Translations under genes and position numbers: made by a program
Assembly: GCA_964544755.1 (NCBI GenBank)
Contig: CAZJDL010000006.1
Coordinates: 1-51,699 of the forward strand
Source: an uncultured Pseudomonadales bacterium
GTDB taxonomy: Bacteria > Pseudomonadota > Gammaproteobacteria > Pseudomonadales > JAUIET01
Reading direction: 5' to 3'
DNA length: 51,699 bases
Shown here: positions 5,785-50,940 of the stretch, piece by piece
Layout: each line of letters begins with the position of its first letter
Numbering within the stretch: the stretch's first letter is position 1
The notes under the pieces: generated by a model
The model's input: only the letters and a program-made list of their open reading frames with translations
Databases searched by the model: none
Told to the model about the DNA's origin: nothing

Positions 5785-5849
5785 GCTGTTGATCCCGGTA
5801 TGACGATTCGAATGGAAATGCTAACAGAAATTGGCGGCTGACGCTTCAG

Positions 5850-5884
5850 CCTAGAAACCGCAGTTGGGCGCGAAAAAGATGTGC
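5850..5884 (-). repeat. Remnant right end of the MITE-like element
   Basis: CCTAGAAACCGCAGTTGGGCGCGAAAAAGATGTGC is the exact reverse complement of 12845-12879. Confidence 0.9.
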
Positions 5885-11419: not shown

Positions 11420-12610
11420 TTATTTGAAAACCGCTTCCGGAGTGCTATCGAAGTCCTTCTCCAGCGTGTTGATGGTGATACGCATGATTTCGCGGAATAC
11501 CTTGTCCCGGTCTTCATTGGCGACGATGGGGATACTGGCGCGGTCGGCTTCGGCGAGAAGATAGGACTGTAAGTCCCAGATTTCGTCGAAAGACTCCAGA
11601 TAACGATCGGCGCGGCGTTGCCGCACACGGCTACCCCGGCCCTGCAGTCTTTGCTGCAGCACTTTGCGCTTTAACACAGCCAACATGACGGGGATCACCG
11701 TGGCATCCTCGCCGGGTTTCAGTTGTTTCACAATGCTTGGTTGCACATGCACCCCTTCCACCACCAGGGAGACCTTTTCCCGCTGGGTACGCGCGATAAC
11801 CGCCTCGATGGCAGTCGAGAGCAAGTCGGCCTGGCTACAGTAGCCCCTGACCAGCAACGATTCCGGCACTTCACGCGGTTTTCCCTGCTGGCCGCGTAAG
11901 GCCTGCCAGGCGGTAAAAGACGATTTATGCAATACTGGCAGCAGTCGCTCGGGTAGCATCGTGCGCATGACTTCGCGCAGCATGTCGGTTGACTGCGTGC
12001 GCACAATGTCGAGACGGCTGGCCAACATGGTGGCGACCGAACTTTTACCACAACCGGCAGTGCCGCCGATCAAGAATATAAGCGACCGGCCGCTGTCGAC
12101 GAAGTCTCGCCAGATCAGCCAGCGTTTTGCCACTGCCGGACCCAGGTCGCGCGATTGGCGCAGATAGCGATAAGTCAGCCGAGAAAGACGCCGCGATGTG
12201 AGCTGTTCAATGCGCCGGTCAACAAGGTGTTTGTGTAACGTGGTCACAAAACGAGCAGCCTCGTCGCTTGCCAGGCCGATAGTCTCCAGGCCGCTCCGGT
12301 ATTGAAGCCGCGAGAACGGCACTAACTCGCCGTCGCGCTGTTGCACTTGAACGACATGGGGTTGGTCTTGTTGCTCGAAGCGGACGACGATACTATCTTT
12401 CTTGGCGTTCTTTAAGTGCGCAACGACCATGCGATGCAGGTCAGCGGTCGTGACCAGTGCTTTATCACCGATAGCAGAACGTATTTCGGTTGCTAATTGA
12501 AAAGCATCTTCGAAGGCCAAGCCTGCATCTTGCAATGAACGTGTCAGGATGCCCCGCAGAAAAGGCACTTTTGTGTGTTCATCCTGATCTTCCACGAGTA
12601 TTTTTGCCAT
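11420..12610 (-). CDS. 2-phosphoglycerate kinase-like P-loop kinase with two ATP-cone-like N-terminal repeats
   Basis: VPFLRGILTRSL / VPFSRLQYRSGL repeats; IGGTAGCGKS Walker A; STDMLREVMR, LHKSSF, VVEGVH motifs of Pgk2-type kinases. Confidence 0.75.
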   Translation of the reverse strand: MAKILVEDQDEHTKVPFLRGILTRSLQDAGLAFEDAFQLATEIRSAIGDKALVTTADLHRMVVAHLKNAKKDSIVVRFEQQDQPHVVQVQQRDGELVPFSRLQYRSGLETIGLASDEAARFVTTLHKHLVDRRIEQLTSRRLSRLTYRYLRQSRDLGPAVAKRWLIWRDFVDSGRSLIFLIGGTAGCGKSSVATMLASRLDIVRTQSTDMLREVMRTMLPERLLPVLHKSSFTAWQALRGQQGKPREVPESLLVRGYCSQADLLSTAIEAVIARTQREKVSLVVEGVHVQPSIVKQLKPGEDATVIPVMLAVLKRKVLQQRLQGRGSRVRQRRADRYLESFDEIWDLQSYLLAEADRASIPIVANEDRDKVFREIMRITINTLEKDFDSTPEAVFK

Positions 12611-12696
12611 GGATCTCCCTGTGTACGGATAGTTTGCGTGCCGGTCGGGTTTACTGGTTGTTATTGCTGCCAGGACATCAAAGCGATGGGTGTATT

Positions 12697-12881
12697 ATCC
12701 TAGAAACCGCAGTTGGATCACGAAAGTATGCACAAGCTCTTAATGCACCTGGAAAATTCGAAAAAGCTCTCATCACCAATAAGGTGACCACGAGTTTTTC
12801 GAATCTCCCATGCACATCAAGCTTTTTCATACGAATCAAGAGGCGCACATCTTTTTCGCGCCCAACTGCGGTTTCTAGGAT
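12697..12881. mobile_element. 185-bp palindromic MITE-like non-autonomous element
   Basis: Perfect 20-bp TIRs ATCCTAGAAACCGCAGTTGG (12697-12716 / 12862-12881), flanking TATT direct repeat (12693-96, 12882-85), internal hairpin TTCGAAAAAGCTC..TCACC-aataa-GGTGA..GAGTTTTTCGAA; partial copies at 4361, 5850 and 34861. Confidence 0.85.
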
Positions 12882-13531
12882 TATTCGTCGCTTGTGGCAG
12901 AAAAATCATACGGTATCTTGATTACGCTGCTGCGCACAAATCCGGAATGCACTCCCAGTTCGTTGTAACGTACACAGTTGCCGCCATCAAATAGCAATTT
13001 GCCGATATAGCGGTGTGATATTTTGTGTTTGAGGTGGTCGGCATAGTTCAGATTCAGAAAAGAGCAGATCAGCCCTCTGATGACGCCGGCATGGACGACA
13101 ATGAGAACAGTTTGCCGAGGATGTGCTGCGGCCACGGCGGAAATGAACTGCACGCTACGCCGTTGCATCTGGCGGAAACTCTCGCCGTCAGGATATACCA
13201 GGTCCGGGTCTTTTTTGTGTTTTGGGTAGTGCTCGGCCACCCACTTCTTTTTCTTCTTGAACAGTTTCCCGTAGTTCACCTCGTTTAGTGCGGCAGAAGT
13301 GTGGATCACGTTGATCCCCCGGCGCAGGGCATAGAACAGTGCGGTTTGCCGGGCCCGTTCCAGGTCGCTGGAGTAGACGGCGTCGAAGTCGAAGGCGCGC
13401 TTGCGCATGCGGGCATCCACGAAATCGACATCGGCGCGCCAGCCGCTGTGGCGAGGCGAGTCGCCCCAGCCCATAATCTCGTCCGCCGCGTTATTCAGCG
13501 TTTTGTAGTGTCTGGTGATAATCGCACGCAT
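12881..13531 (-). CDS. Histidine phosphatase / phosphoglycerate mutase family protein
   Basis: ITRHYKT (RHxxT), YSSDLERARQTA, LNEVNYG, PDGES, VVHAGVI. ATG at 13531; the longer ORF overlaps parA. Confidence 0.88.
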   Translation of the reverse strand: MRAIITRHYKTLNNAADEIMGWGDSPRHSGWRADVDFVDARMRKRAFDFDAVYSSDLERARQTALFYALRRGINVIHTSAALNEVNYGKLFKKKKKWVAEHYPKHKKDPDLVYPDGESFRQMQRRSVQFISAVAAAHPRQTVLIVVHAGVIRGLICSFLNLNYADHLKHKISHRYIGKLLFDGGNCVRYNELGVHSGFVRSSVIKIPYDFSATSDE

Positions 13532-13616
13532 TCCGCAAGCTACCAGTTTATTGTGAGGTTGTAAAAAGCCAAGCGGCTTATATTCGCGCCATGCCTGCCC
13601 GCTCGGCGCAATGGGA

Positions 13617-14363
13617 TTATGCGGCGAGTCTTGCCTTGATCTCTGCCCACAAGGCTTGGTAACAAAGTTGGGCGCGGCTGCCGGGTGCAAAATCGCCAAG
13701 CGGCGCACGATGGATGCCCATCCGTTCTACTTGACTGCTATAGGGAATGCGGGTTTCCAGCAAGCCTACCATGTAGTCCGGTGGGATATCGACGATTGCA
13801 CGCTGCAACTGCTTGCGCCGGTCGACCATATTGAAGAAGGGTAGCAGTTTGAGGCTATTAATTTTCTCCTTTTTGAAAAATTTGGCAACCTGCTGATAGG
13901 TGCGAAGCGACAGGGTGGTCGGTATGGTGGGCAGCAGCAAGGCGTCTGCCGCCGCGAACACATTCTCCGATGTGAGCGAGATACTCGGCGGGCAGTCGAG
14001 GAATACATACGCATATTCATTTTTAAAGGGCCGCAGCAACTTGCGCAGTTGCTGGGCTGGTTTTTTTCCGTGTTGCAGGAAGATGTCCATATTGCGATAG
14101 GAAAAATCTGCTGGCAAGAGGTCGAGGCATTCGAAGTCGGTGCCGTGGATAAAATCGTCCAGGTCTCTCTTGCCGCGCACCAGGCGTTTACCGCCGCCTT
14201 TGATTTTCGGTTTTATTCGAAAGTAATAGCTGGCGGCGGCCTGCGGGTCGAGGTCCCAGACCAACGTGGGCGCGCCTTCGCTGGCCGCTAGGTAGGCCAG
14301 GTTAATCGCGGTGGCCGTTTTACCTACGCCGCCCTTGATGTTATACGTGGCGATGACTTTCAT
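13617..14363 (-). CDS. Orphan ParA/Soj family ATPase
   Basis: KGGVGKT deviant Walker A, DLDPQ, LDCPPS; no parB; start overlaps the CHAD stop (ATGA). Confidence 0.92.
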   Translation of the reverse strand: MKVIATYNIKGGVGKTATAINLAYLAASEGAPTLVWDLDPQAAASYYFRIKPKIKGGGKRLVRGKRDLDDFIHGTDFECLDLLPADFSYRNMDIFLQHGKKPAQQLRKLLRPFKNEYAYVFLDCPPSISLTSENVFAAADALLLPTIPTTLSLRTYQQVAKFFKKEKINSLKLLPFFNMVDRRKQLQRAIVDIPPDYMVGLLETRIPYSSQVERMGIHRAPLGDFAPGSRAQLCYQALWAEIKARLAA

Positions 14364-15931
14364 AGTTCCTTTCCCTGATTTTCGGCCTGGTGCGTGGCAA
14401 ACAGCTCGCGGAAGCGGGCGCGGTTTTCCGGCCGGGAAAACTGCCTGAATCTGCCTGCAAATTCACGCCGCGCGTGCTGCTGGCGTCGTTCCAGGCCTTC
14501 GATCAGCATACCCATCGCCAGCAGTGTTGCGGCGGGCGTCGCGAGTTGCACCACCATTCGCTGGCTGTACTGCTGCAGCGCCGTTACCTGCACGTGGTAG
14601 TCCTGCAAGTCACCCAGGTTGACTTGCAGCGTTTTGAGCGCTTTTATGAGCTTCTTGATCTGTACCGGCGGAAACAGGCTTTGAAAGAACTCCATCAAAT
14701 AACGCAGCTTCTTGCCGCTCTTGCGCAGTTCATGCAGTGCTTCTGCCGGTGTGTCAGATTCTATCGCCCGGCCTTCCTTAATAACACGCCGGTAGGTTCG
14801 CCAGATGCGTTCACGGGCCAGGTCGAGGGTGGGTCGACGGGCGTTTTGCAGCGTGGAGCGTTCGCTTACTGGCGTATCCAAAAACTGGCGCCAGCCCTTA
14901 ACCAGCTGACGATAGCGAGCCGACTGTAGCACTTTTTGCAGCGCCTTGTGCTCGATTTGCCGTTGCCTGCCGAGAAAATCGCGCAGCGGCTCGATATCGG
15001 TGCGTACCGAGTCGAGCAGGCTGCCTTGATAGTCGTCGAATTTCAACAGCCAGACATCAAGGTCGCGCAACGGGCTGCTTACCTGGCCGAGCCAGGCAAA
15101 CTCGGCCCTATAGCGCTTGAGTATGCGTAGCGGTAATACCCCTTTGATCTGACCCAGCGCTGTACGGGTACGGCGTACTGCAACGCGAAAATCGTGTAGA
15201 AACTCGGTGTCTGTTCCTTTCAGAGTGCCGGTTTCATTGGCGACCATGACGTCAAGCAGTCGACGCAGAATGATTCGGCTTGTCTGGTCGGCGCGCCGCT
15301 CAGGTTGCAGTCGCAGGTTCAGTTTGGAGGAGTAATCACCCGGCGTAAGTCCGACCAATGCCAGCGCCGTCAGCACGGGATCCTCGGTTGTCGCCAGCAG
15401 GCCTATGTTTTCCAGTGTGTTGACGATTTTCGCGCAGGATTTTTGATAGCCCTTGATCGGCAGCACGATGACCCGATTGCCCAGCCGGTACGTCTTGCCG
15501 CCTTTGCGGCGTTGTACGGCGTTCTCCTCGATCAACAGGTGGACAACGGTTTTATCAATCTTATTGAGCACGCGCAGGACATGTGTCTTGCTTACAATCT
15601 GACACAGTGGAGTCAGTGCGCGCATTTCCAGCACGGGCTCAAGCTGCGCACGAAAAGGCCCTGCGGGAAGATCCCATACAAAGCGGGCAGGGGTCGACAA
15701 GACGATCTGCGCCTTGTTATCACTGCCGCCCAGGTCGCGCCGGATCAGTGTGTGTTTCTTGTTGTCTTGCTGTTCTTCCAGAACGGAGTTATTCGCATGT
15801 AGACGCCAGTCGAAAGTGTCGTAATAAATGCGCTGCACTATCCGCGGTGGTTGTGCAATCAAGCGGGTATTTTTCCGCAAGTTGGCCACTAGTTCATTGC
15901 TAGTGACCTGATCGGGAATAATGTATTGCAA
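14360..15931 (-). CDS. CHAD domain protein with CYTH-like N-terminal region (putative polyP-binding protein)
   Basis: YYDTFDWRL N-terminal motif; CHAD motifs DTEFLHDFRVAVRR, LRDLDV, LHELRKSGKKLRY..EFF, LGDLQD. Start uncertain (TTG 15931; ORF open to 16051). Confidence 0.88.
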   Translation of the reverse strand: MQYIIPDQVTSNELVANLRKNTRLIAQPPRIVQRIYYDTFDWRLHANNSVLEEQQDNKKHTLIRRDLGGSDNKAQIVLSTPARFVWDLPAGPFRAQLEPVLEMRALTPLCQIVSKTHVLRVLNKIDKTVVHLLIEENAVQRRKGGKTYRLGNRVIVLPIKGYQKSCAKIVNTLENIGLLATTEDPVLTALALVGLTPGDYSSKLNLRLQPERRADQTSRIILRRLLDVMVANETGTLKGTDTEFLHDFRVAVRRTRTALGQIKGVLPLRILKRYRAEFAWLGQVSSPLRDLDVWLLKFDDYQGSLLDSVRTDIEPLRDFLGRQRQIEHKALQKVLQSARYRQLVKGWRQFLDTPVSERSTLQNARRPTLDLARERIWRTYRRVIKEGRAIESDTPAEALHELRKSGKKLRYLMEFFQSLFPPVQIKKLIKALKTLQVNLGDLQDYHVQVTALQQYSQRMVVQLATPAATLLAMGMLIEGLERRQQHARREFAGRFRQFSRPENRARFRELFATHQAENQGKEL

Positions 15932-16200
15932 CCGTGTTCTGTGCGCAGCGCTCACGACCAGCCTATAGAAAGAAAAAGCGCAAGTAAATATCGACGGGCG
16001 CCAAGCGGTGAACCATTGCCGCCGACGCAGGCGCCCAGCACCGGTGACCACCGCAAGGGTATGAGATTCTCCGCGCCGCCTAAGGTCGGCGCCATTGATC
16101 TGATCATTCTGGGATAATGGGAGTCATGGTTGCTTAAACGCCTTTCAGTAGGCGGTATCTTGATAGCTGAGCTGTCAATTGTAATGCAAAGGTCGCCGTT

Positions 16201-17988
16201 CTATGCAGCTTCTTCGATCACTTGCAGGGGGTGCACCGCTTTGGCGATGCGTCTTGAGAAATAATAAATGCGCTTGAGCTTCTCGATAATGTCCATCTCT
16301 ATGGTGTAGTCGGCCAGCCGGTTCGGTTCTTGCGCTACCAGCCGCTGGTTCTCATGCATGGCGGCTGATTCCATCAATTGGTTGATTTCTGTTTTCATGT
16401 CGATAACGCTGCGCGCCGATTGCTGGTCATTCAGCATTAAGGCGAGTAGAGCCTGGTCTGCTGTGGTTGCTATGACGCTATGAAGATTCTTAAACACTGC
16501 CTGGGTGGGCTCGCTGATGGCTACACTTTCTTCGATGCATTTCAAGCCAAGCGCGGCCAGGTCTGTTTCGATGACGTCGCCGATATTCTCCAAATCGTTG
16601 CTGGCAGCCAAGAGCTTGGTCAGTGCACTGGTTTGCTCTTCGGTCAGTGCCCTGCGGCTGATGTGGCCGAGATAGGTCACGATATGGCCGTGCAGCGTAT
16701 CAACCTTATCATCAATCTCGCGAACCTCCCGCAGCGCCTCGCGGTCGGCAGACAGGATAGCCGGCATAATTTTCTGCAGCATCTCTTGCACGTGTTCGCC
16801 CATATGGCGGAGTTCGAGACGCACCTGCTGTAGCGCAAGCGATGGTGTGTCGAGCAGTTCCTCGCTAAGATATCTGGGTTTGGTCATCACCACTTCTTCG
16901 ATCGGCTTGTCTGGCACCAGCTTTTCCACCAGCCGCGCCAGCTGGCCGGCGAAGCCGATAAAGATCAAGGTGTTGGCGATGTTAAAGGCTGTATGCGCGT
17001 TGGCGATCTGGCGCGGCACTTCGGCGGCCAGCCGATCGATGCCGGAAAGGTTGGCATGTGTCGGTGAAAACACGGTGACGAATTGTGCCAGGTAGGGAAT
17101 CAAACCGATCCAGAGCAGTACGCCGAAGACGTTAAACAGGACGTGCGCCATGGCAGCGCGGACGGCCTCCCTGGGTTTGCCGATGGAGGCGAGAATGGCG
17201 GTAACGCAGCTGCCGATATTGGCGCCGAGGGCGAGCGCGATCCCGGCCGGCAATGTAATGAAACCCTGCGACGCCATCACAATCACGATGCCGGTGGTCG
17301 CCGACGAGGACTGTACCAGCCCGGTAAAAGCCGCCGCAACCAGAATGCCTATCATCGGGTTTTCCATGCTGGTCATCAGGTCCAGGAATGGTTGGTAACT
17401 GCGCAGTGGCGCCATGGCTTCACTCATGACGCTCATGCCGAAGAAAATCATGCCCAGGCCCATCAGCAGGGCGCCGTAGTGTTTGATTTTTTCTCGTTTA
17501 GCGATGAACAGCATGCCAAAGCCGGCTGCAATCATCGGCAATGCCGCCTTGGTCACCTTGAAGGCGACAATCTGTGCGGTGATGGTGGTGCCGATATTGG
17601 CGCCCATGATAACGCCGATCGACTGCGACATAGACATCAGGCCGGCCGTAATGAAACCCACGACCAATACGGTCGTAACCGACGAAGATTGAATCACGGC
17701 GGTGACGAAGGCGCCGGTCGCGGCACCCATAAAGCGGTTGCTGGTCAGCCTTGCGAGGATAATGCGCATGCGTTCGCCGGCGGCTGCCTTCAGCGCCTCG
17801 GCCATTTGCTCCATGCCGAACAGAAATAGGGCCAGGCCGCCAGCCAGCTGCATGCCCATGTCCCACCAGGGCATTTCTGTTTCCGTGGCAACGGCAGCCG
17901 CAGCCGGCACTGCCAGTACGGCGCACAGCAACAGCGGCGCCAGCGGTGTATTCTGTGCCGCACCGAGCAGGGTGGGCCGCCTTCTCAT
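16201..17988 (-). CDS. Na+/Pi cotransporter family protein (NptA/YjbB-like) with C-terminal PhoU-like domain
   Basis: Two QSSS..GANIG repeats, GGLALFLFGM, DLENIGD. Confidence 0.92.
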   Translation of the reverse strand: MRRRPTLLGAAQNTPLAPLLLCAVLAVPAAAAVATETEMPWWDMGMQLAGGLALFLFGMEQMAEALKAAAGERMRIILARLTSNRFMGAATGAFVTAVIQSSSVTTVLVVGFITAGLMSMSQSIGVIMGANIGTTITAQIVAFKVTKAALPMIAAGFGMLFIAKREKIKHYGALLMGLGMIFFGMSVMSEAMAPLRSYQPFLDLMTSMENPMIGILVAAAFTGLVQSSSATTGIVIVMASQGFITLPAGIALALGANIGSCVTAILASIGKPREAVRAAMAHVLFNVFGVLLWIGLIPYLAQFVTVFSPTHANLSGIDRLAAEVPRQIANAHTAFNIANTLIFIGFAGQLARLVEKLVPDKPIEEVVMTKPRYLSEELLDTPSLALQQVRLELRHMGEHVQEMLQKIMPAILSADREALREVREIDDKVDTLHGHIVTYLGHISRRALTEEQTSALTKLLAASNDLENIGDVIETDLAALGLKCIEESVAISEPTQAVFKNLHSVIATTADQALLALMLNDQQSARSVIDMKTEINQLMESAAMHENQRLVAQEPNRLADYTIEMDIIEKLKRIYYFSRRIAKAVHPLQVIEEAA

Positions 17989-18485
17989 TTTGGCTCCCCC
18001 TTATCGCGCTGTTGGTCTTTCCTTGTCTTGACGACTAGCACAGAGATCGGTGCCAGGCGCACGACTTGTTCGGTCTTTGCTCCCAGCAACAAGCGCGGCA
18101 GCCCGGTGCGTCCCAGACTCCCCATGACGATGAGCCGGGCGTTGATCTTTGCCGCTACTTCGAGAATCCGGTTAACCGGTAAGCCAACCACCAGCATGGG
18201 CGTTGCCTTTTTCAGAGTGGCACGTGTAGGGTGTTTTTCCTGCATCTTTCGCATGAAGTCATTCAGCATATCTCTGGCGACGTCTTCCAGCCGGTTCAAC
18301 AGCTTCTTGCTGCCTTGCAGCTCATAATAGCCGGGCGCCTCAGCCAGATCGTGGGCGACGTGCAGCACGGTAAGTGACGCATCCATCGTTTCGGCCATTT
18401 CAATTGCAGCAACCAAAGCGGCTTCCGAGTGTGGTGAAAAATCTATGGGGACCAGCACTGGGCGGGTATCTTTGCGGGCCGCCAT
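17985..18485 (-). CDS. Universal stress protein
   Basis: VLVPIDFS, LIVMGSLGRTG..LLG..EQVVRLAPISVLVV. Confidence 0.92.
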   Translation of the reverse strand: MAARKDTRPVLVPIDFSPHSEAALVAAIEMAETMDASLTVLHVAHDLAEAPGYYELQGSKKLLNRLEDVARDMLNDFMRKMQEKHPTRATLKKATPMLVVGLPVNRILEVAAKINARLIVMGSLGRTGLPRLLLGAKTEQVVRLAPISVLVVKTRKDQQRDKGEPK

Positions 18486-18637
18486 TTTGGACTCCTTTGA
18501 GGCAACAACGCCGCAAATTTTCGTCAGTCAACCAGCCGCACTCTCCGCCAACCGGCTAGGCTCGGTTAAGGCGCGATGCGGTAAACAACGGGTTCTGCGG
18601 CCAGGCCAAGCCTGGCATTGGTGTTTAACCGCTGCAA

Positions 18638-20920: not shown

Positions 20921-21016
20921 TGTTAGTTCATCCTGTTCTTTTATTGGCGGTGCTCAACGTCATCTTTCTATTAGATAGGCTTTGCCGTTGTTTGGCTACC
21001 GAAATTCGGGCCTATG

Positions 21017-21030
21017 TTGATCTGGATCAA
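21017..21030. promoter_or_regulatory. FNR/Anr-type box between divergent ppk1 and CNNM genes
   Basis: Perfect TTGAT-CTGG-ATCAA consensus. Confidence 0.7.
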
Positions 21031-21395
21031 CCAGCGTAAGTGAGTCAGTGTTGTAGAAGTCCGGCTGCACCGCCAAAGTGGTGAAACAAACTATTATACA
21101 GTTGATGTGGATCGCGACTTGCCAAACAGGTTGGCGACTGGGTTGGTAGACAATATTTTATTCCCCTTGCAGCCTCGAATCTCACTAAATGGATATTGCT
21201 TCACGTTTGCGGCACAAACCCGAGCCGGAATTGATTTTAATCGATTACTGCTTGCGCTAGCGGAGGCATCCTCATCGCGAGGCGTTATCGGATGTGCTTG
21301 TTGCAATGGTGACGTGTTAAAGTGGAATACTAGGTGGTGGTAAATGTTCGCAGAGCGGAAAGAAGTGGGCATTTGGCCACTCGCGGGAACAGGTA

Positions 21396-23012: not shown

Positions 23013-23015
23013 CCT

Positions 23016-24275: not shown

Positions 24276-24372
24276 CTGGGCATCGCTGAATACCCGCAGC
24301 ACGTCAACCTCGCGAGCTAACACATTGGGTATTGCCATGGTAGCGCCATCGTGGTTGGTGGCGTTGGTAACG

Positions 24373-26391: not shown

Positions 26392-26434
26392 TAGAGGGCC
26401 GCTGGCGCCGGGCTGGCCGACAAAAACGCCCATT

Positions 26435-27244: not shown

Positions 27245-27254
27245 TGCCGAACCT

Positions 27255-28058: not shown

Positions 28059-28921
28059 TTCTTTTTCCCACGCAGGTACGTACGGAAGGCGATGGACACG
28101 CTGTTCATCAGCAGCACCATGCCGATCAGTACCAGGGCAACGCCGTAGGGGAGGTCTTCGGGTACGCCGGGAACCTGGGTCGAGACCACGAACAGGTGCA
28201 GTGACATCGCCATGGTTTGGTCGAAGATGCCCTGCGGCAGAAACGGGGTAAAAAAGACCGCGCCGGTGAACATAATGGGGGCGGTTTCGCCAGCGGTGCG
28301 GGACACCTCGAGAATAACGCCAGTCAGAATGCCGGACACGGCATTCGGCAGCACCACGCGCCGAATCGTTTGCCAGCGCGTAGCGCCCATGTTCCAGCAC
28401 GCTTCGCGGAACGCATGCGGCACCGCCTGTAACGACTCGCGCGTGGCGACAATCACTACCGGCAAGGTCATGATGGCGAGGGTAAGGCTGGCCGCCAGAA
28501 TACTGGTGCCAAAGCCGAAGAACAGTACAAAGGCCCCGACGCCGAACAGTGCATGCACAATAGACGGCACGCCTGCCAGATTAATAATGGCCAGGTTGAT
28601 GAGCCGGGTGAACCAGTTATTGCCGGCATACTCGCTGAGATAAATCGCCGCGGCAATGCCCAGCGGTACGGAAATCAGCAGTGCGACCGCTACCAGCCAG
28701 ACGGTACCCAACAGCGCGGGCAGCAAGCCACCAGCGGTCATGCCATCGGTTGGGGCGGTGAACAGGAAGTCCATCGATATCACCGAGCTGCCTTTGATCA
28801 CCAGCAGGGACAAAATAATCAGCACCGGAATAATCAACAGCACGGTCACCAGCAGGAGTAACATTTTGACCAGGCTCTGTACGCGCTGGTTCTTTCGATT
28901 TAGTTCAGATGCCGCGAACAT
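28052..28921 (-). CDS. pstA: Phosphate ABC permease PstA
   Basis: AAIYLSEY, NLAGVPSIV, GATRWQTI, GETAPI; ATG at 28921. Confidence 0.95.
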   Translation of the reverse strand: MFAASELNRKNQRVQSLVKMLLLLVTVLLIIPVLIILSLLVIKGSSVISMDFLFTAPTDGMTAGGLLPALLGTVWLVAVALLISVPLGIAAAIYLSEYAGNNWFTRLINLAIINLAGVPSIVHALFGVGAFVLFFGFGTSILAASLTLAIMTLPVVIVATRESLQAVPHAFREACWNMGATRWQTIRRVVLPNAVSGILTGVILEVSRTAGETAPIMFTGAVFFTPFLPQGIFDQTMAMSLHLFVVSTQVPGVPEDLPYGVALVLIGMVLLMNSVSIAFRTYLRGKKKW

Positions 28922-28931
28922 AGTTGGCCCC

Positions 28932-29864
28932 TCAGCCCTTGCGTACACCGCGCACGACCAGGTCGGCGGTCAGATTGATAATAAAGGTGATCACGAACAG
29001 GAAGATACCGATGGTAAACAGCGCCTGGTAGTGATCGGAACCGACGGCGGTCTCGCCCAGCTCGGCGGCGATGGTGGCTGTCAGGGCGCGTACCGAATCA
29101 AACACGCTGCCGGGTATGTTGATCGAGTGACCGGTGGCCATCAATACCGCCATGGTTTCACCGAAACCGCGGCCAACACCGAGCAGCACTGCGCCGAGCA
29201 GGCCGTTTTTGGCCGCCGGTAACACGGTTTTATAAACCACCTGCCAGCGGGTAGCACCCATGGCCTCGGCTGCTTCCCGGTAACGATCCGGTACTGCCTT
29301 GAGTGCGTCCTCGGCGATGGACGTCATAATAGGCGCCGCCATCAATCCGAGAATGATGCCGGCGTTCAATATGTTCAAGCCCACTGGCACATCAAACAGG
29401 TCGATGATCAGCGGGTTCATAATGCTCAGGCCGATAAAACCCCACACCACCGATGGAATGGCAGCCAGTAGTTCCACTAGTATTTTCAGCGTTTCGCGGG
29501 TTTTGCCGGTGGCAAATTCGGCGATGTAAACGGCGGCACCGAGCGAGAACGGAATAGAGACCAGCATCGCCAGGCCGGTCACGCTGGCGGTACCGGCGAC
29601 GAGAGCCAGAATGCCGTACTCTGGATCGTCTTCGTCGGCCGGGTACCAGTAAGGGGAGGTAAAAAATTCCTTGAAGTCGAAACGCTCCAGAATAAAGCCA
29701 AACCCTTCTTTGATAATAAAGGCAAAAATGCCGACAATGAAAATAATTGCCGAGATACCGCCGATGAAGACCAGCGCCTGCACCAACTTGTCGATATACC
29801 AATCGGTATTGCGGCGATCAAAATCAACCGCGGTGGCTGCTTCTGGCAGGCGGGACTGGCGCAT
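28932..29864 (-). CDS. pstC: Phosphate ABC permease PstC
   Basis: ELLAAIPSVVWG, EDALKAVP, GRGFGETMAV. Confidence 0.95.
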   Translation of the reverse strand: MRQSRLPEAATAVDFDRRNTDWYIDKLVQALVFIGGISAIIFIVGIFAFIIKEGFGFILERFDFKEFFTSPYWYPADEDDPEYGILALVAGTASVTGLAMLVSIPFSLGAAVYIAEFATGKTRETLKILVELLAAIPSVVWGFIGLSIMNPLIIDLFDVPVGLNILNAGIILGLMAAPIMTSIAEDALKAVPDRYREAAEAMGATRWQVVYKTVLPAAKNGLLGAVLLGVGRGFGETMAVLMATGHSINIPGSVFDSVRALTATIAAELGETAVGSDHYQALFTIGIFLFVITFIINLTADLVVRGVRKG

Positions 29865-29865
29865 G

Positions 29866-30954
29866 TCAGTGCGCCTGCTCGCCGCGCAGTAGTTCCATCA
29901 GGTCGCGTACGTGCACGGCGATCTCGCGATATAGCTCTTCCAACCGTTTGTTGCCATCGGCGGCATCGCCGTCGCGGGGCGCAGGGCCTACGTCCCACTC
30001 CAGCGGTACTGTATGGAAAGGGATTGGGTCGAAGTAGGATTTGACGGGACCTTCCAGGCTAACAAGAACGTGCTTGCTGGCGAGTTGCAGCGGCGTCATG
30101 GCGAGTGGCGCCGGCTTGGTGCCGTCTTCGAGGCTAACACCATGACCATCGAGAAACTGTCGCATCGCCGCATTGAGTGTTGCGGCCGGGTAGCGCCCTC
30201 CGCTGGTGTAGTGACCGCTGCCTGGAAAGTTTTTGCGCGCAATCGCGGCTGCCATCTGGCTTTGGCAACTGTTGTCTTCGTCCAAGAACAAAATATTGTA
30301 GACTTTCGGTGTTTTGGTTTCTCCGCTGACGGCGAATATCGTTTCCTCACACAGGTTTTTGGCCTGATCGGCAATCCGTTTCAACTGGTTGAATACCACA
30401 AAAACTGCCAGCAGATTTTTGACCGCTTCACGCTCGTGATTGGTCATCAACTCGGCATAGACGGCGTCAAGGTCATTTTCCATCGTTTCTTCTAACACCT
30501 TGGTGGCTCTGGCCTTGTCAACGTCGAGGCTGTTGAACGCTGCTATGGCGTCGTGCAGCATGAACTGCGTATCGCGGCTTACGCGTTCCAGCTCGACCGC
30601 CATTGATCCCGACGGTGGCGTGGCTAATTGCAATACCTCGCGGCAGATCGTAGCGGCATAGTCGCCGATGCGCTCCAGTTCTATATTGGCTCGAATCACC
30701 GATGACAGCAGGCGCAAGTGGCCGGCACTGGGCAAATGGGTGGCAATAAATTTGTGACACAACCTGTCGACCTTGCGCATCAAGCGATTGATGGGGTGGT
30801 CCGCCAGCACGGTGGCGGCGGCCAGCTTGGTATTGCCGCTTTGTAGCGCGTGCATGGCATCCTTGACCGCCGCTTCTACCCGCGTGCTCATAGCCGCGAT
30901 GTGTTCGCGCAGGATGGCCAGATCCCGTTCCAGGCGTTCTTCATAGTGGGTCAT
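29866..30954 (-). CDS. phoU: PhoU fused to an ArsC/LMW-PTP-like domain lacking the CX5R residues
   Basis: ELERIGDYA and LKRIADQAKN PhoU repeats; C-domain ILFLDEDNSCQSQMA..SGG..LEWDV. Confidence 0.88.
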   Translation of the reverse strand: MTHYEERLERDLAILREHIAAMSTRVEAAVKDAMHALQSGNTKLAAATVLADHPINRLMRKVDRLCHKFIATHLPSAGHLRLLSSVIRANIELERIGDYAATICREVLQLATPPSGSMAVELERVSRDTQFMLHDAIAAFNSLDVDKARATKVLEETMENDLDAVYAELMTNHEREAVKNLLAVFVVFNQLKRIADQAKNLCEETIFAVSGETKTPKVYNILFLDEDNSCQSQMAAAIARKNFPGSGHYTSGGRYPAATLNAAMRQFLDGHGVSLEDGTKPAPLAMTPLQLASKHVLVSLEGPVKSYFDPIPFHTVPLEWDVGPAPRDGDAADGNKRLEELYREIAVHVRDLMELLRGEQAH

Positions 30955-30982
30955 GATTGATTATCCCATTACTCTTGCTGGT

Positions 30983-31858
30983 TCACTCGCAGGAGAGTTC
31001 GCCAATTGGCGCATAACCTTTTTTCTGCAGAATACACTGGCCCGCATCGCTGAGGATCCAATCCATATAGCCTTTGACCGCGCCCTTGGGTGCGCCGTTG
31101 GTATACATGAACAGCGGCCGTGCAATCGGGTAGCTGCGGTCGCTGGCGGTGGCGACGCGGGGGCTTACGCAAGCTTGTTCGCCGGTTTTGGAGATGCAGG
31201 CCATTTTTACGTGGTCGGTGGCATATGCCAGGCCGCTATAGCCGATGGCGCAGGGCGTTTTCTCTACCAGCTCGACCACATCCTTGGAGCCATGCATATC
31301 CAGCGTACCCTGCCGGTACTTGCCCTTCTTGCCCAGCACCGCTTCCTTGAAATAAACGTAGGTGCCGGAATTGTTCTGGCGGCTGGCGACGACTATTTTG
31401 TCGCTTTTGCAGGAGGGGATTTTAACGCCCAGGTCAGACCACCTGGAGATTTTCTTGCCGCGCGCATAAATACCCTTCAATTGCTCCAGTGACAGCGTGT
31501 CGATCGGGTTGTCTTTATGCAGAAAAACCGCCAGCGCGTCGTAGCCAACCACGTGTTGCACCGGTTGCTGGCCATTTTTCTTGGCCAGCTGTATTTCTTT
31601 GTCTTTCATGCCGCGGCTGGCGTTGGCGATATCGACCGTGCCGTTGATCATGGAGGCGATACCGGTACCCGACCCGCCACCCGAAACCGCAACGGCGACA
31701 TCGGGATTGACCTTGGGATAGGCTTCCGCCCAGGCTTGGGCGACATTGACCAGCGTATCCGAGCCCTTGTTCTGAATCAATTCTCTGGCATCGGCAGCGG
31801 TGGTCAACAACAAAGCGCTTGCCAGCAATGGCGCGGCGGCGATCAGCTTAAATTTCAT
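30983..31858 (-). CDS. pstS: Phosphate ABC substrate-binding protein PstS
   Basis: Signal peptide, KGSDT, GGGSGTGI, DIANASR, SRQNNSGT, YPIARPL; GGAG RBS before ATG at 31858. Confidence 0.95.
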   Translation of the reverse strand: MKFKLIAAAPLLASALLLTTAADARELIQNKGSDTLVNVAQAWAEAYPKVNPDVAVAVSGGGSGTGIASMINGTVDIANASRGMKDKEIQLAKKNGQQPVQHVVGYDALAVFLHKDNPIDTLSLEQLKGIYARGKKISRWSDLGVKIPSCKSDKIVVASRQNNSGTYVYFKEAVLGKKGKYRQGTLDMHGSKDVVELVEKTPCAIGYSGLAYATDHVKMACISKTGEQACVSPRVATASDRSYPIARPLFMYTNGAPKGAVKGYMDWILSDAGQCILQKKGYAPIGELSCE

Positions 31859-31956
31859 GCGATATGCTCCCATAGTGTAATCGTTAACAGCAGATAGTGG
31901 GATATATCGCATGGCCCAGCTAGTAAGCTAGATTTACTACACATCCACTACAGAAG

Positions 31957-31990
31957 ACTTTAGTTGCGAATTGTTACAGTTTTGTTACAG
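31957..31990 (-). promoter_or_regulatory. Pho box and -10 element of the pstS operon
   Basis: Minus strand CTGTAAC-AAAA-CTGTAAC (31990-31973) followed 10 nt later by TAAAGT, the standard PhoB promoter geometry. Confidence 0.85.
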
Positions 31991-32025
31991 TCAATTGAAC
32001 ACTTATCACCCGACTGCCTTGCTCT

Positions 32026-32670
32026 TTAGTTTCGAGGATTAGAGATTATCAATAGATAACCCTCAATTTCTGTGGGGTAGCTGGTTTTGTATTCAACCAG
32101 TTCCGCACCGAGTTTCTTTTTACACTTCTTTGCCAGTGCTAAAAAGGTTTCCCTGCCGGGGTCTGCGATGATGACTTGCTGCCCGCCAGCCATCAAAGAT
32201 CGTTTGATGACTTTGTAGAGTGGAGCCACCATGTTATCCCAAAAGCAGATATCGCTGCCTAGCACGATGTCCTGCCTGGCTAACGCCTTGCGCGAGATTT
32301 CATGAAACTTCTTGCACTTGGTTTTTAGTTTGACGTCATTGAGTGCGGCTTGCACTTTGAGATACGGAAACACGTTTTCGTCAGCGTCCACCGCGGTGAC
32401 CCTGGCTTGCTGGCGTACCGCGCAATAGATTGACAGCGCACCCCAGCCGCAACCCAGATCCATCACGTGGCTGCCCGGCGCGAGCGGGTTATTCTCCAGA
32501 TAGTCCATCAACAGGTAACTGGAACCCCATACCTTGGTGCCGTGTATCATAGGTTCAACGTGCTTGCGCAGGCGTTTAACGAGCTTGTGCTTTTTCTTTA
32601 AGGTGTAGACGCCGTACACGTCGTTGATGTGTTTATGGGGATTGCTGGTGGTGGAATCGTTTAAGTCCAA
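32026..32670 (-). CDS. Class I SAM-dependent methyltransferase (Methyltransf_16-like)
   Basis: HGTKVWGSS, VMDLGCGWG, VLGSDICF, IADPGR. Confidence 0.82.
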   Translation of the reverse strand: MDLNDSTTSNPHKHINDVYGVYTLKKKHKLVKRLRKHVEPMIHGTKVWGSSYLLMDYLENNPLAPGSHVMDLGCGWGALSIYCAVRQQARVTAVDADENVFPYLKVQAALNDVKLKTKCKKFHEISRKALARQDIVLGSDICFWDNMVAPLYKVIKRSLMAGGQQVIIADPGRETFLALAKKCKKKLGAELVEYKTSYPTEIEGYLLIISNPRN

Positions 32671-32705
32671 TGCGCTTTCCTGTGAGGATGAAGGTGATAG
32701 CCGAC

Positions 32706-34205
32706 TTATTCTGCGCTGAGTTTAAACCCGGCAGATTTTAAATAGCTGGTTTCTTGTTCCAGATCTGCGTGCGTCAGCGGATGTTCGATAAGCCAATTTG
32801 GTGGGAACTGCAGCAATAGGTTCTCCGCATCAACAGTCAGTGTCAGCTCGGGTGTATCGCCGTCCAGCCGCGAGCGGTTCAACAGCACCGCCAGCCGCAG
32901 CAATACCGTTAGCCGCTGCGCCTTGCGCGCTGCTTTTTCCGGTAGTGCTTCGAACAGTTCGTCGTGAAACTTGCGGCGATGCGAGCGCACCAGTGCGGCC
33001 AGGGTTGTTTGTTCCTGGCGCGAGAAACCCGGTAAGTCGGCGTGCTGGATCAAATAAGCGCCGTGTTTGTGGTACTGGGAGTGGGCAATGTCGAGGCCGA
33101 TTTCGTGCAGGTGGGCGGCCCAGCTTAGCAGCTTGGCGTGGTAGGAATCGCGTAAGCGCCATGCCTTGGCGACCTGATGGCGCAAGTTTTGCGCACTCGC
33201 TTCGACGCGTTCGGCTTGCAACATGCCGACATGGTAGCGCTCGCACAGATCAACTACCGTGTCATTACGGACGTCTGCGTTGCTGAGGCGGCCGAGCATG
33301 TCGTACAGTAAGCCCTCACGCAATGCGCCGTCCGAAGCGGCCATCTCGTCGATAGCCAGGCTGCTAAACGCGGCCTTGAGTATGGCGACGCCGCCGGGTA
33401 GAACGCTGGCGCGCCGCTGTTCAATGTCACCTTTTGCGAGCTTGTTGGCGTCGCCCAGTTCTATCAACAGGGCGCGCAGCTTATCCAGCGCCGCGGCGGT
33501 AATCAAATGGTCATGCCAGCCATTCTGGCGAATGATGTTACCGATTGCACGTATGGTGCCGGAAGAACCGATGGCTATTTCCCAGCCGCTGCTGCGGTAT
33601 GAGGCGCTCGTCGGCTTCAGTTCTCGCAAGGCAAATAACTCCGCCGCGCGCATGCGTTTCTTGTTAATGCGGCCGTCGGGGAAGAACTTTTGGCTCATGC
33701 TGACGCAGCCCATGTACAGGCTTTGTTTTTGCAGCGGGATAAAACCGACGCCCACAATCACTTCCGTACTACCGCCGCCGATATCGATCACTAACCGCTT
33801 CTGCGCCTCGGTCTGTATGCTGTGCGCCACGCCAAGATAGACCAGCCGCGCTTCTTCGTAGCCGGAAATAATTTCGATCTGGCGGCCCAGCACGGTATTG
33901 GCTTGGTGCAGAAATTCCTCGGCATTGTGGGCTTTGCGCAAGGTGTTGGTGCCGACCGCGCGTATGTTATCGGCCGGTATATCGGTCAGGCGCTGGCCAA
34001 AGCGTTGCAGGCAGTCGAGTGCGCGATCGATAGTGTCTTGCGCTAGAATGTTATGTTCATCGAGACCGCTGGCAAGCTGCACCATCTCACGCATGCGGTC
34101 GATGGTGGTCAGGCGCCCGGAGGACTCCACCCTGGCGATTTTCATATGAAAACTGTTGGAACCGAGATCGATCGCGGCAAGGAACTCTCGTTTGGGTTCG
34201 GCCAT
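32706..34205 (-). CDS. ppx: Exopolyphosphatase Ppx/GppA
   Basis: AAIDLGSNSFH, GTNTLR, GYEEARL, DIGGGSTE, ALREG, LHEIG..YHKH. Confidence 0.95.
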   Translation of the reverse strand: MAEPKREFLAAIDLGSNSFHMKIARVESSGRLTTIDRMREMVQLASGLDEHNILAQDTIDRALDCLQRFGQRLTDIPADNIRAVGTNTLRKAHNAEEFLHQANTVLGRQIEIISGYEEARLVYLGVAHSIQTEAQKRLVIDIGGGSTEVIVGVGFIPLQKQSLYMGCVSMSQKFFPDGRINKKRMRAAELFALRELKPTSASYRSSGWEIAIGSSGTIRAIGNIIRQNGWHDHLITAAALDKLRALLIELGDANKLAKGDIEQRRASVLPGGVAILKAAFSSLAIDEMAASDGALREGLLYDMLGRLSNADVRNDTVVDLCERYHVGMLQAERVEASAQNLRHQVAKAWRLRDSYHAKLLSWAAHLHEIGLDIAHSQYHKHGAYLIQHADLPGFSRQEQTTLAALVRSHRRKFHDELFEALPEKAARKAQRLTVLLRLAVLLNRSRLDGDTPELTLTVDAENLLLQFPPNWLIEHPLTHADLEQETSYLKSAGFKLSAE

Positions 34206-34338
34206 ATTAATTTCGCGTCTGCCAGCGACTTATTGTTAGGGTGGCGCGCTAGAGTATTACAAATCCTGGCTGTTGTTAACGGAAAAGTCCCAGATTTCGT
34301 TTTAGCGCCGCGTAAACCATAGCGGATATTATGCGCTA

Positions 34339-34821
34339 TTAACGCGGTGTGCTGGTCGTGGTCCAGCGTGCATAGGGGTTAACGCTGAGGTTTTGGTTGT
34401 AAAACCTGGGGTCATCGGTCACTTCTTCGCCCAGCCAGGCGGGTGTTGCGAACGTTTCTACGTCATTGGCCAGTTCGATCTCGGCAATCACTAAGCCTCT
34501 GTTGTCGCCGTCGAATACGTCAACCTCCCATGTCTTACCTTTAAACGGCACTCGGTAGCGGGTTTTTATGATGGGTGTGCCTGTACATAGTTCGACCAGT
34601 TCCTGCCCGTCGTGGTAAGGAATGGCGTATTCAAACTCGCTGCGCCGCATACCGGTTGCCTTGCTCTTTAATGTTAGCAGTGCTCCATCCTGTTTTAGGC
34701 GCACGCGCGCAACAAGCCTTTCTGATTCGCACAGATAAGCTTGAATGTAGCGCTCGCCCGCGACGTTTGGTCGCCAGCTAGCATCGCGAAGCAAGAACTT
34801 TCGCTCTATTTCCTGGGTCAC
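34339..34821 (-). CDS. CYTH domain (triphosphate tunnel) protein
   Basis: EIERKFL, RVR, EFEY.IP, KTRY, WEVDVF, AEIEL, EVTDDPRFYN. Confidence 0.92.
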   Translation of the reverse strand: MTQEIERKFLLRDASWRPNVAGERYIQAYLCESERLVARVRLKQDGALLTLKSKATGMRRSEFEYAIPYHDGQELVELCTGTPIIKTRYRVPFKGKTWEVDVFDGDNRGLVIAEIELANDVETFATPAWLGEEVTDDPRFYNQNLSVNPYARWTTTSTPR

Positions 34822-34860
34822 GCAGTCAGTGCTCAGTGATAAGTTTATGGCGCCAGCATA

Positions 34861-34873
34861 ATCCTAGAAACCG
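34861..34873 (+). repeat. Short remnant of the MITE TIR
   Basis: ATCCTAGAAACCG matches the first 13 nt of the TIR, in the intergenic gap between ppk2 and the CYTH gene. Confidence 0.5.
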
Positions 34874-34898
34874 TAACAATCTGCCGCTGGCGCTTTTA

Positions 34899-36020
34899 CT
34901 AGCCCTTGCGCCGCTGCTTGGGATGCAGGCTCTTACCAAGGATGTGCTGGGCGTTGCTTATAACGTGAACACTTGACCCGACGATCAACGGGTCGGGACC
35001 CCTCACGATCTTGTCAGACTTGCCGGAGTAGGGCAAGCTCGACAGGAAATGCTGCATGGTGTTTAAACGTGCGCGCTTCTTGTCGTTCGACTTGACGATG
35101 GTCCACGGGGCGTCAGCGGTGTCAGTATAAAAAAACATGGCCTCCTTGGCTTCGGTGTAATCGTCCCACTTACTGAGCGAGGCCTGGTCGATGGGTGATA
35201 GTTTCCATTGTTTCAGTGGGTCGCCCTTGCGCGATTCAAAGCGCCGACGCTGTTCTTCCTGCGTTACCGAATACCAAAATTTAAACAGGTGGATTCCGGA
35301 GCGCGTTAACATGCGCTCGAAGTCGGGGCATTGACGCATGAACTCGAGATAGTGGCTCGGTTGGCAGAAACCCATTACGCGCTCCACGCCGGCGCGGTTG
35401 TACCAGGAGCGATCGAAAAACACCATCTCGCCGGCCGACGGCAGATGCTTTATGTAACGCTGAAAATACCATTGGGTCTGTTCCGCTTCGGTCGGCTTTT
35501 CCAGCGCCACCACGCGCGCGCTGCGAGGGTTCAAGTGCTCCATAAAGCGTTTGATCGTGCCGCCCTTACCGGCTGCATCGCGGCCCTCGAACAGTATTAC
35601 GACCTTCTGGCCGCTATCTTTAACCCATTTCTGCACCTTTAGCAGTTCCACCTGCAGATCTTTTTTGTGCTTTTCATAGACGCTGCGGCGGATTTTTGAA
35701 TGATAGGGATACTCGCCGGTCTCGAATGCCCGACGAATCTCCTCTGGGTCACGGCGTTTCCGCGCCAGCTCATGAATTGTTTCACCGGCAGACGGGCGCT
35801 TACCCTCCTTCTTCGCCGCTGGTTTCGATGTCTTGTCGCCGGCATTCGGTGCCGCTGTTTTAGCGGCGCCATTCGCCTTTTTGCCCGTCGTTATTTTTTG
35901 CCTGCGCGCGCGCTTGTCTTTAGCGGGATCGGTCTTCAGCGGCGCCGACTCGGCAGGTGTCGATTCGTCTTTTATATCCTGTGCGGTGACTGCGGTTTTT
36001 GTGGTGGTTTTTTCTGTCAT
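34899..36020 (-). CDS. ppk2: Polyphosphate kinase 2 (single domain) with long basic N-terminal extension
   Basis: FEGRDAAGKGG, QWYFQRY, FDRSWYNRAGVERVMG, KQWKLSP, APW. Confidence 0.96.
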   Translation of the reverse strand: MTEKTTTKTAVTAQDIKDESTPAESAPLKTDPAKDKRARRQKITTGKKANGAAKTAAPNAGDKTSKPAAKKEGKRPSAGETIHELARKRRDPEEIRRAFETGEYPYHSKIRRSVYEKHKKDLQVELLKVQKWVKDSGQKVVILFEGRDAAGKGGTIKRFMEHLNPRSARVVALEKPTEAEQTQWYFQRYIKHLPSAGEMVFFDRSWYNRAGVERVMGFCQPSHYLEFMRQCPDFERMLTRSGIHLFKFWYSVTQEEQRRRFESRKGDPLKQWKLSPIDQASLSKWDDYTEAKEAMFFYTDTADAPWTIVKSNDKKRARLNTMQHFLSSLPYSGKSDKIVRGPDPLIVGSSVHVISNAQHILGKSLHPKQRRKG

Positions 36021-50917: not shown

Positions 50918-50940
50918 TTTTCCAGATGCAACCAAGGAGG

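Follow-up and report, generated by a model that had tools for sequence, protein, structure and literature searches.

Do some 21 consecutive genes for phosphate and polyphosphate (polyP) metabolism in an uncultured Pseudomonadales bacterium form a module, and if so, what kind of module? The question is raised by contig CAZJDL010000006.1 (contig C6) of assembly GCA_964544755.1, a 3.63-Mb draft genome of 184 contigs that is 97.5% complete; we analyzed a stretch of 51,699 nucleotides of this contig, hereafter the window. Profile matches from Pfam and NCBIfam identify 21 family-assigned genes at positions 11420-36020, all tied to phosphate or polyP, and bear out both the gene list of a first-pass annotation and the order pstS-phoU-pstC-pstA-pstB-pstB-phoB-phoR that it described (Table 1). 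The block is ~25 kb long (minus strand at 11420-20920, plus at 21396-24275, minus at 24373-36020) and its neighbors are unrelated genes, moaA and one for an RDD protein at one end and one for a UPF0014/FetB-like permease at the other. The first-pass annotation had taken it for a specialized polyP-accumulation module and inferred that it may resemble a granule-organelle locus. The explanation that we favor, and hold to be reasonably probable, is a modular phosphate/polyP homeostasis island, probably acquired horizontally, that works beside the ordinary Pho regulon. We regard the island as real and conserved and as probably mobile; it has a regulatory and transport variant of its own and encodes a candidate pair for granule positioning.

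The Pho and Pst genes of the island are a divergent paralogous set and not the housekeeping Pho regulon. The first-pass annotation had raised the possibility of second pst, phoBR or ppk1 copies, and for pst and phoBR they exist: a local tblastn search of the complete genome with the proteins of the window located a canonical phoB-phoR-pstS-pstC-pstA-pstB-phoU locus on contig C60, where identity to the window is 49% for phoB, 36% for phoR, 25% for pstS, 35% for pstC, 37% for pstA, 48 and 43% for the two island pstB genes and 27% for phoU. The island ppk1 is the only one in the genome (a single PF02503 match), and by tblastn the genes for ppx, the CHAD protein, CYTH, the ATP-cone kinase, the histidine phosphatase, Usp and the methyltransferase are likewise present once, while a second ppk2 (33% identity) is found on contig C137.

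The two Pho loci also carry distinguishable boxes. Upstream of the island pstS lies a Pho-box-like direct repeat, CTGTAAC-AAAA-CTGTAAC (CTGTAACAAAACTGTAAC), which consists of two 7-bp repeats with an 11-bp period; nowhere else in the window does a Pho box match exactly. The repeat GTAACA-N5-GTAACA precedes pstS in 12 of 17 related loci, with a hybrid box in one more (L035). At the canonical locus, TGTCAT-N5-TGTCAT repeats precede pstS and phoB, such that the half-site is GTAAC in the island and GTCAT in the housekeeping locus, which suggests two insulated regulatory circuits. A scan for the classical Pho box that tolerated up to two mismatches returned three sites against 2.4 expected, so only the exact site is meaningful. 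Scans for sigma-70 promoters and terminators across 11000-36400 gave promoter-like sites at or below the shuffle expectation and were not used.

The island transporter is a variant in its gene order, its PhoU and its ATPases. Although PstS, PstC, PstA and PhoU all exceed the cut-offs of their family models, the pstS-C-A-B-phoU order of PstSCAB-PhoU systems does not occur in the window; instead, phoU sits between pstS and pstC, an order shared by 15 related loci. Island PhoU is extended by a C-terminal domain of ~150 residues that aligns to arsenate reductases of the low-molecular-weight (LMW) phosphatase type and to the arginine phosphatase YwlE (E 1e-4 against arsenate reductase 3t38 with phmmer; E 0.022 against Pfam LMWPc). 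In place of the catalytic loop CX5R(S/T) this domain reads DEDNSCQS, and in 15/15 homologues Asp replaces the nucleophilic Cys and Gln, Leu or Gly replaces the P-loop Arg. The two PstB proteins are 36% identical to each other and score 318.4 and 282.2 against the TIGR00972 equivalog model, both below its cut-off of 343.2. PstB1-type sequences (11 including that of the window, one of them without the Q-loop stretch) keep LSGGQ, but Pro occupies the position of the Q-loop Gln and Asn that of the H-loop His; in PstB2-type sequences (12, again including the window) the Walker A, Q-loop and H-loop motifs follow the consensus and LSLEE replaces LSGGQ. A homodimeric PstB ATPase with consensus motifs is thus not encoded in the window. 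Each ATP site of an ABC ATPase dimer combines the Walker, Q- and H-loop motifs of one subunit with the signature of the other, and the complementary motif loss suggests that PstB1 and PstB2 may pair into an ATPase with a consensus site and a degenerate one, an arrangement known from heterodimeric exporters. No title or abstract in the literature searched (with ~1.7 million PMC articles and the subscription journals outside it) describes a PhoU-ArsC fusion with pstB2.

The candidate granule-positioning pair consists of a CHAD protein and a small ParA. Among the matches listed, the CHAD protein has at least 120 homologues with at least 53% identity, mostly labelled uncultured Gammaproteobacteria. 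We sampled the best 80 genome loci from a homologue-alignment search, 71 of which have at least 800 nt of room downstream of the CHAD gene; in 50 of these 71 a ParA homologue follows directly on the same strand. The gap between the two genes is at most 30 nt in 45 of 48 pairs, with an overlap of 1 or 4 nt in 23, and in the window the two genes overlap by 4 nt and are translationally coupled. Of the 55 island-clade loci with at least 4 kb of room, 15 have the variant pst after CHAD-ParA on a single strand. The ParA motif NIKGGVGKT is invariant in 20/20 aligned sequences and fits the deviant Walker A pattern KGGxxK[ST] with its signature lysine; the best sequence relative in the Protein Data Bank (PDB) is another ParA (8ray_B, E 6e-23), with McdA (6noo) at E 1e-9. 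Since the genome carries ~8 ParA/MinD-like loci, the island ParA is an extra one.

An AlphaFold2 model of the CHAD protein (pLDDT 88.7) has the helical CHAD fold and matches the polyP-bound Chlorobium tepidum CHAD structure 6qva in Foldseek (TM 0.92; 33-34% identity to 6qv7/6qva), from which polyP binding is predicted. The model matches Escherichia coli YgiF (5a60) over both domains, and its N-terminal half matches TTM enzymes. In this half, Pfam CYTH was not detected even at E 10, and the position of the ExExK motif reads QYIIP in the window and F-x-I-P in the clade consensus; with the motif lost, triphosphatase activity is unlikely. Complex prediction instead assigns this half a partner: the CYTH-like domain of the CHAD protein is the predicted docking site of ParA, with ipSAE values of 0.69, 0.69 and 0.68 against 0.00 for the best control, a partner pLDDT of 87 and at least 74% of contacts shared between runs. 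The corresponding ipSAE mark is reached by 116/157 solved complexes and 2/215 mismatched pairs, counts that hold only roughly because custom alignments were used. The predicted interface joins two loops of the CYTH-like domain (K135, T136, G169 and Y170 of the CHAD protein) to R49, D76, D81 and R219 of ParA, positions that are invariant or nearly so in the clade alignments. According to the available parts of reviews, no ATP-driven system for positioning polyP granules is known, and AlgP is the only named factor for granule spacing, with energy dependence left open; the available part of a 2025 review likewise says that it remains to be seen whether polyP granule localization needs energy. Within the same literature search as above, no title or abstract describes a ParA/polyP-granule positioning system.

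To assess how far the island holds together, we examined ten distant genomes (G031-G040) picked for a close CHAD homologue, with counts covering the fetched stretches. CHAD-ParA accompanies the variant Pst in 10/10, which is the basis on which these genomes were selected. The remaining modules recur as well: ppk1 (74-79% identity) lies in the same 50 kb as CHAD-ParA-variant pst in 7/10 and on another contig in three, Usp-NaPi/PhoU directly follows ppk1 in 8/10, the CNNM pair (69-87% identity) is divergent from ppk1 in 7/10, and the ATP-cone kinase (53-69%) is present in 7/10, often next to two ppk2-like genes, the histidine phosphatase (59-72%) in 6/10 and CYTH (44-47%) in 5/10. Most of the accessory genes that the first-pass annotation had assigned to a polyP module are therefore syntenic in distant genomes, with Usp, NaPi/PhoU, CNNM, kinase and phosphatase recurring in six to eight of the ten; its kinase/phosphatase pair, adjacent in the window, is split in the distant islands. 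Module order varies among genomes, with CHAD-ParA directly before pstS in the distant genomes and after the NaPi gene in the window. Both same-genus genomes keep ppk1-CHAD-ParA-phosphatase-ATP-cone kinase-moaA; one of them (G002) additionally keeps the CNNM pair and ppx-methyltransferase-phoB-phoR, where the methyltransferase adjoins ppx, and the other (G001) has the PhoU fusion at 80% identity. In eight family- and order-level relatives, none of the accessory genes occurs in the 33 kb around ppk1.

This distribution is accompanied by a conflict between ppk1 and a housekeeping marker. The identity of ppk1 to its counterparts is 82-86% within the genus, 39% in the family (sister genus), 43% in one order-level genome and 75-79% in the distant genomes G031-G035, while for UvrD the same groups give 90-93, 76-77, 59 and 61-62%. 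The conflict suggests that the island was acquired horizontally and that any ancestral ppk1 was lost. Near-identical DNA is present in sequencing runs labelled hydrothermal vent metagenome from several studies; no RNA dataset is listed for the stretch 13600-23500.

A number of observations weigh against the island reading or narrow it. Transfer is argued from one housekeeping marker and from identities rather than trees; the G+C content of the island (0.54-0.59) is in line with that of its flanks; and no empty insertion site is demonstrable, as moaA and UPF0014 are not neighbors in the four family genomes searched, so that no conclusion on insertion can be drawn. Three members of the block are not conserved members of the island, since ppx recurs in 1/10 distant islands and the methyltransferase and the window's ppk2 (above 42% identity) in 0/10, and to this extent the polyP module of the first-pass annotation is not supported. 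In the same-genus genome G002 the variant pst and Usp-NaPi are missing at the locus, and a search with the window query did not recover the PhoU fusion from this genome. The ascertainment bias of the ten genomes was checked by using the PhoU fusion as anchor in 400 genomes drawn evenly from the class: the fusion is present in 7/399 other class genomes, one being the same genome as G040, and CHAD-ParA is near it in only 2/6 loci with usable flanks (2.4-17 kb upstream). Variant Pst and CHAD-ParA are thus modules that can occur apart and that one clade keeps together, and the interpretation of the first-pass annotation is supported in part. CHAD also occurs without ParA, in 21/71 loci, mostly of Methylobacter and Methylomicrobium. 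Besides the copy before pstS, no GTAACA box was found in the window, nor was one found in eight aligned ppk1 promoters, and neither the window scan nor these promoters yielded a regulatory motif shared across island genes; the co-regulation of accessory genes expected by the first-pass annotation is thus not supported, as only pstS has a Pho-box-like site. The fold of the PhoU C-terminus rests on weak sequence matches, since AlphaFold2 models the PhoU part confidently and this domain with pLDDT <50. The ParA-CHAD contact is itself a prediction, and the substrates and directions of the NaPi/PhoU and CNNM transporters are putative. The two uptake routes proposed by the first-pass annotation are accordingly not established, because the NaPi-PhoU protein falls in the NptA/YjbB group, whose transport direction is unsettled.

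Several of these points would fit other explanations. If the block were a phosphate-scavenging (starvation) island, the variant Pst would be an extra high-affinity importer for use when phosphate is extremely scarce, and the polyP genes would lie nearby through the general starvation response. Pho regulons often include polyP genes, the Pho-box-like site controls the pst operon only, and the variant Pst stands without CHAD-ParA in four of the six evaluable sampled genomes, all of which favor scavenging. We nevertheless consider it rather improbable: a canonical high-affinity Pst with PhoBR is already encoded elsewhere in the genome, CHAD-ParA and the variant pst succeed each other on one strand in the loci counted above, the island-type ppk1 lies within 50 kb in seven of the ten distant genomes, and scavenging offers no role for a ParA with a predicted docking site on a polyP-binding protein. 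The block could also be an ordinary neighborhood of phosphate genes without joint function that have drifted together, in which Usp, ParA, kinase, phosphatase, methyltransferase and CNNM would be bystanders. That genomes with a UvrD of only 61-62% identity have the modules again within 50 kb, at 54-93% protein identity, that eight family- and order-level relatives have none of the modules next to ppk1, and that CHAD and ParA are translationally coupled make this explanation unlikely in our judgment, even though it would account for the poor conservation of the methyltransferase, ppx and the window's ppk2 in the distant islands, for the differing module order and for the want of a common promoter motif.

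The fused PhoU, whose C-terminus is closest to arsenate reductases, together with the near-identical DNA from hydrothermal-vent-labelled runs of several studies, brings to mind an arsenate-adapted phosphate system, in which the ArsC-like domain would sense arsenate and uptake would discriminate against arsenate in arsenic-rich vent fluids. This is very improbable, as the catalytic Cys and Arg are replaced in 15/15 homologues, Pfam and NCBIfam scans found no ars genes among the island families, and the conserved partners of the system are polyP genes.

We therefore return to the homeostasis island and to how it might work. Island PhoBR would activate its own Pst through the GTAACA-type box, separately from the housekeeping regulon with its TGTCAT boxes, and PPK1 would polymerize the imported phosphate. 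The CHAD domain may coat the resulting granule, and ParA may be recruited to it by the degenerate CYTH-like domain. Bound to ATP and sitting on the nucleoid as a dimer, ParA would then space and partition the granules, much as McdA/McdB do for their cargo. The polymer would be mobilized by PPX, PPK2 and the CYTH enzyme; phosphate and counter-cations (Mg2+ or polyamines) could cross the membrane through the NaPi/PhoU carrier and the two CNNM proteins; and the ATP-cone kinase, the histidine phosphatase and Usp may act as nucleotide-sensing regulators.

A bolder and distinctly more doubtful proposal is that the island is a transferable kit for polyP accumulation, with a Pst uncoupled from housekeeping control, CHAD/ParA granule positioning and dedicated exporters. 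Through a dedicated PhoBR and the pseudo-phosphatase sensor domain of its PhoU, the kit would uncouple a Pst with one active site and thereby permit luxury uptake; PPK1 would build granules, which the CHAD adaptor and a dedicated ParA motor would space and partition; and once the cell draws on the store for energy, the exporters would let phosphate and counter-cations out. If this were true, CHAD/ParA would be the first ATP-driven positioning system for polyP granules, and if the kit were sufficient for accumulation, it would bear on phosphorus cycling in marine and vent settings and on the engineering of phosphorus recovery.

Table 1. Features of the phosphate/polyP island and the profile matches or motifs that identify them.
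Feature	Positions	Strand	Match or remark
Kinase with two ATP-cone domains and a P-loop kinase domain (2-phosphoglycerate-kinase-like)	11420-12610	-	Pfam ATP-cone E 6e-10
Histidine phosphatase His_Phos_1, branch 1	12881-13531	-	Pfam E 7.5e-31
Small ParA/MinD-type ATPase	13617-14363	-	Pfam AAA_31 E 5e-33; KGGVGKT deviant Walker A
CYTH-like (TTM-fold, motif-degenerate) + CHAD protein, YgiF-like architecture	14360-15955	-	Pfam CHAD E 2.6e-58
Na/Pi-cotransporter + PhoU domains (NptA/YjbB group)	16201-17988	-	Pfam Na_Pi_cotrans E 8e-64, PhoU E 6e-15; TIGR00704 232.6 (cut-off 210.1)
Universal stress protein Usp	17985-18485	-	Pfam Usp E 1.5e-28
Polyphosphate kinase 1, ppk1	18638-20920	-	four PPK1 domains; NF003921 977 (cut-off 701)
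CNNM/CorC-type transporters, tandem pair	21396-23012 and 23016-24275	+	Pfam CNNM, CBS, CorC_HlyC
Second PhoR	24373-25704	-	TIGR02966 381.2 (cut-off 334.2)
Second PhoB	25705-26433	-	TIGR02154 308.5 (cut-off 296.2)
PstB2 ATPase	26435-27277	-	degenerate signature motif
PstB1 ATPase	27255-28058	-	lacks Q-loop Gln and H-loop His
PstA permease	28052-28948	-	TIGR00974 258.6, over cut-off
PstC permease	28932-29864	-	TIGR02138 278.7, over cut-off
PhoU + C-terminal LMW-phosphatase/ArsC-like domain	29866-30954	-	TIGR02135 135.4 (cut-off 130.25)
PstS-family phosphate-binding protein	30983-31912	-	TIGR02136 240.8 (cut-off 206.6)
Pho-box-like direct repeat	31973-31990	-	~60 nt upstream of pstS
Class I S-adenosylmethionine-dependent methyltransferase (Methyltransf_16-like)	32026-32670	-	Pfam E 2e-9; local neighbor only
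Exopolyphosphatase ppx (Ppx/GppA family)	32706-34205	-	Pfam E 5e-76; TIGR03706 321 (cut-off 307)
Stand-alone CYTH/TTM enzyme, intact EIERK motif	34339-34821	-	Pfam CYTH E 3e-13; N-terminus MTQEIERKF
Class I PPK2, basic N-terminal tail	34899-36020	-	TIGR03707 384 (cut-off 302)

Some gene boundaries in Table 1 are probable assignments: the CHAD gene probably starts with GTG at 15955, giving 531 aa, the histidine phosphatase probably at 13531, judging from the position of its RH motif, and the first pstB probably at 28058. The end of the Usp gene overlaps the start of the NaPi/PhoU gene by 4 nt. A 92-aa open reading frame at 21094-21372 was considered as a gene and rejected as probably spurious, since it has no Pfam or NCBIfam match and sits in the poorly conserved intergenic DNA between the divergent ppk1 and CNNM genes. 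The CNNM proteins score for the polyamine exporter PaeA, but below its cut-off.

The ATP-cone kinase is only a family-level relative of 2-phosphoglycerate kinase (2PGK). It matches NCBIfam 2PGK models at E 7e-76 with scores of 255.5 (cut-off 343) and 227.9 (cut-off 603), both below threshold, and the atlas cluster '2PGK family' at 0.97; its second N-terminal cone has E 0.0018, and a sequence search of the PDB gave no match. We know of no role for such a kinase in bacteria. Lpa1, a plant relative, affects phytate phosphorus storage according to the available part of its source, which is a parallel and not evidence. A second, more distant paralogue of the kinase (36-38% identity) lies directly before CYTH in G034 (55068-56765), G036 (49825-51500) and G039.

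The first 105 residues of the window's PPK2 (35706-36020, minus strand) are rich in Lys, Ala and Thr, with 25 Lys and Arg, an isoelectric point of 9.9 and the motif KPAAKK. This tail resembles the histone-H1-like tail of the granule protein AlgP. A 14-mer, GCGGTTTCTAGGAT, occurs four times in the window at up to one mismatch against 0.21 expected (12697-12710, minus; 12868-12881, plus; 5848-5861, minus; 34861-34874, minus); two copies form a 19-nt inverted repeat around ~170 nt that separate the phosphatase gene from that of the ATP-cone kinase, and the repeats look like a repetitive extragenic palindromic (REP) or miniature inverted-repeat transposable (MITE) element, or a shared operator. 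Outside the island, a 923-aa protein of unusual architecture (45863-48634, minus strand) carries both a HupE/UreJ_2 membrane domain and a long TPR array, and around the start of its gene and a YdjM-like gene the G+C content dips to 0.47 (44001-46000), compared with 0.52-0.59 elsewhere.

The sampled CHAD loci contain further arrangements. In loci L020-L060, a conserved operon found in 9-16 loci lies ~1-9 kb upstream of CHAD (e.g., L020:1408-8525), divergent from a CofD-like gene, and encodes His_Phos_1, His_Phos_1 with NUDIX, a 430-aa protein, a RimK-like ATP-grasp protein, a fusion of PhoU with an APH-type kinase, and NUDIX; the genome of the window has no good match to this operon. The combination of ATP-grasp, histidine phosphatase and NUDIX resembles eukaryotic inositol-pyrophosphate enzymes. 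In Methylobacter/Methylococcaceae loci (L051, L073, L075, L078, L081, L083, L085, L090 and L097-L099), CHAD is mostly without ParA and is divergent from a pstS-C-A-B-phoU set in canonical order, whose PstC is unusually long (~800 aa) and has a WD40-like insert. Locus L022 is labelled 'uncultured Halobacteria archaeon', with island proteins 58-94% identical to the window set; the label is probably wrong.

For the questions of how bacterial polyP granules are organized and what makes an organism a polyP accumulator, the island offers a compact list of parts: a ParA with a predicted docking site on a putative granule-binding protein, a Pst with asymmetric ATPases and a modified PhoU, and a second Pho circuit with a distinguishable box, parts that travel together between distant lineages. 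Each of these has a known counterpart from which it departs. All seven protein families of the E. coli-type Pho regulon are present, as is the Pho-box-like repeat with 11-bp spacing before pstS; unlike that regulon, the island set is a second, divergent copy in the order pstS-phoU-pstCA-pstB-pstB-phoBR, with an extra non-catalytic domain on PhoU, two unlike PstB proteins and a GTAAC half-site. Two adjacent pstB genes with non-equivalent roles are also described in Enterococcus faecalis, where the pair is ~60% identical (PMC12096839), whereas the island pair is 36% identical and shows a complementary motif loss that the available text of that paper does not mention. The CHAD protein shares the two-domain architecture of E. 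coli YgiF (CYTH-CHAD, 5a60) by fold, and differs in that its N-terminal domain lacks ExExK and has a predicted ParA docking site instead. As in McdA/McdB carboxysome positioning, a small deviant-Walker-A ParA is encoded beside a cargo-binding protein; in contrast to that system, the proposed cargo is a polyP granule, to which a CYTH-like/CHAD protein would serve as adaptor.

At the level of the whole locus, no title or abstract in the literature searched describes a linkage of ppk1 with CorC. The closest published arrangement is the conserved folD-ppk-parA-CHAD group of Acidithiobacillus, in which ppk1, parA and a CYTH/CHAD gene are conserved together as they are here; in the available text the ParA is read as a plasmid-partition protein and no granule role is proposed, and a variant Pst, a second PhoBR, a CNNM pair, Usp-NaPi or an ATP-cone kinase are not reported there (PMC10892726). 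The idea that laterally derived Pho and ppk2 genes underlie accumulation has also been put forward for Ca. Accumulibacter, where horizontally acquired homologues of phoR, phoB and phoU together with ppk2 are proposed to lie behind the polyP-accumulating trait; in the available text, however, those genes are traced to several donors, and no single contiguous island is described (PMC11361876).

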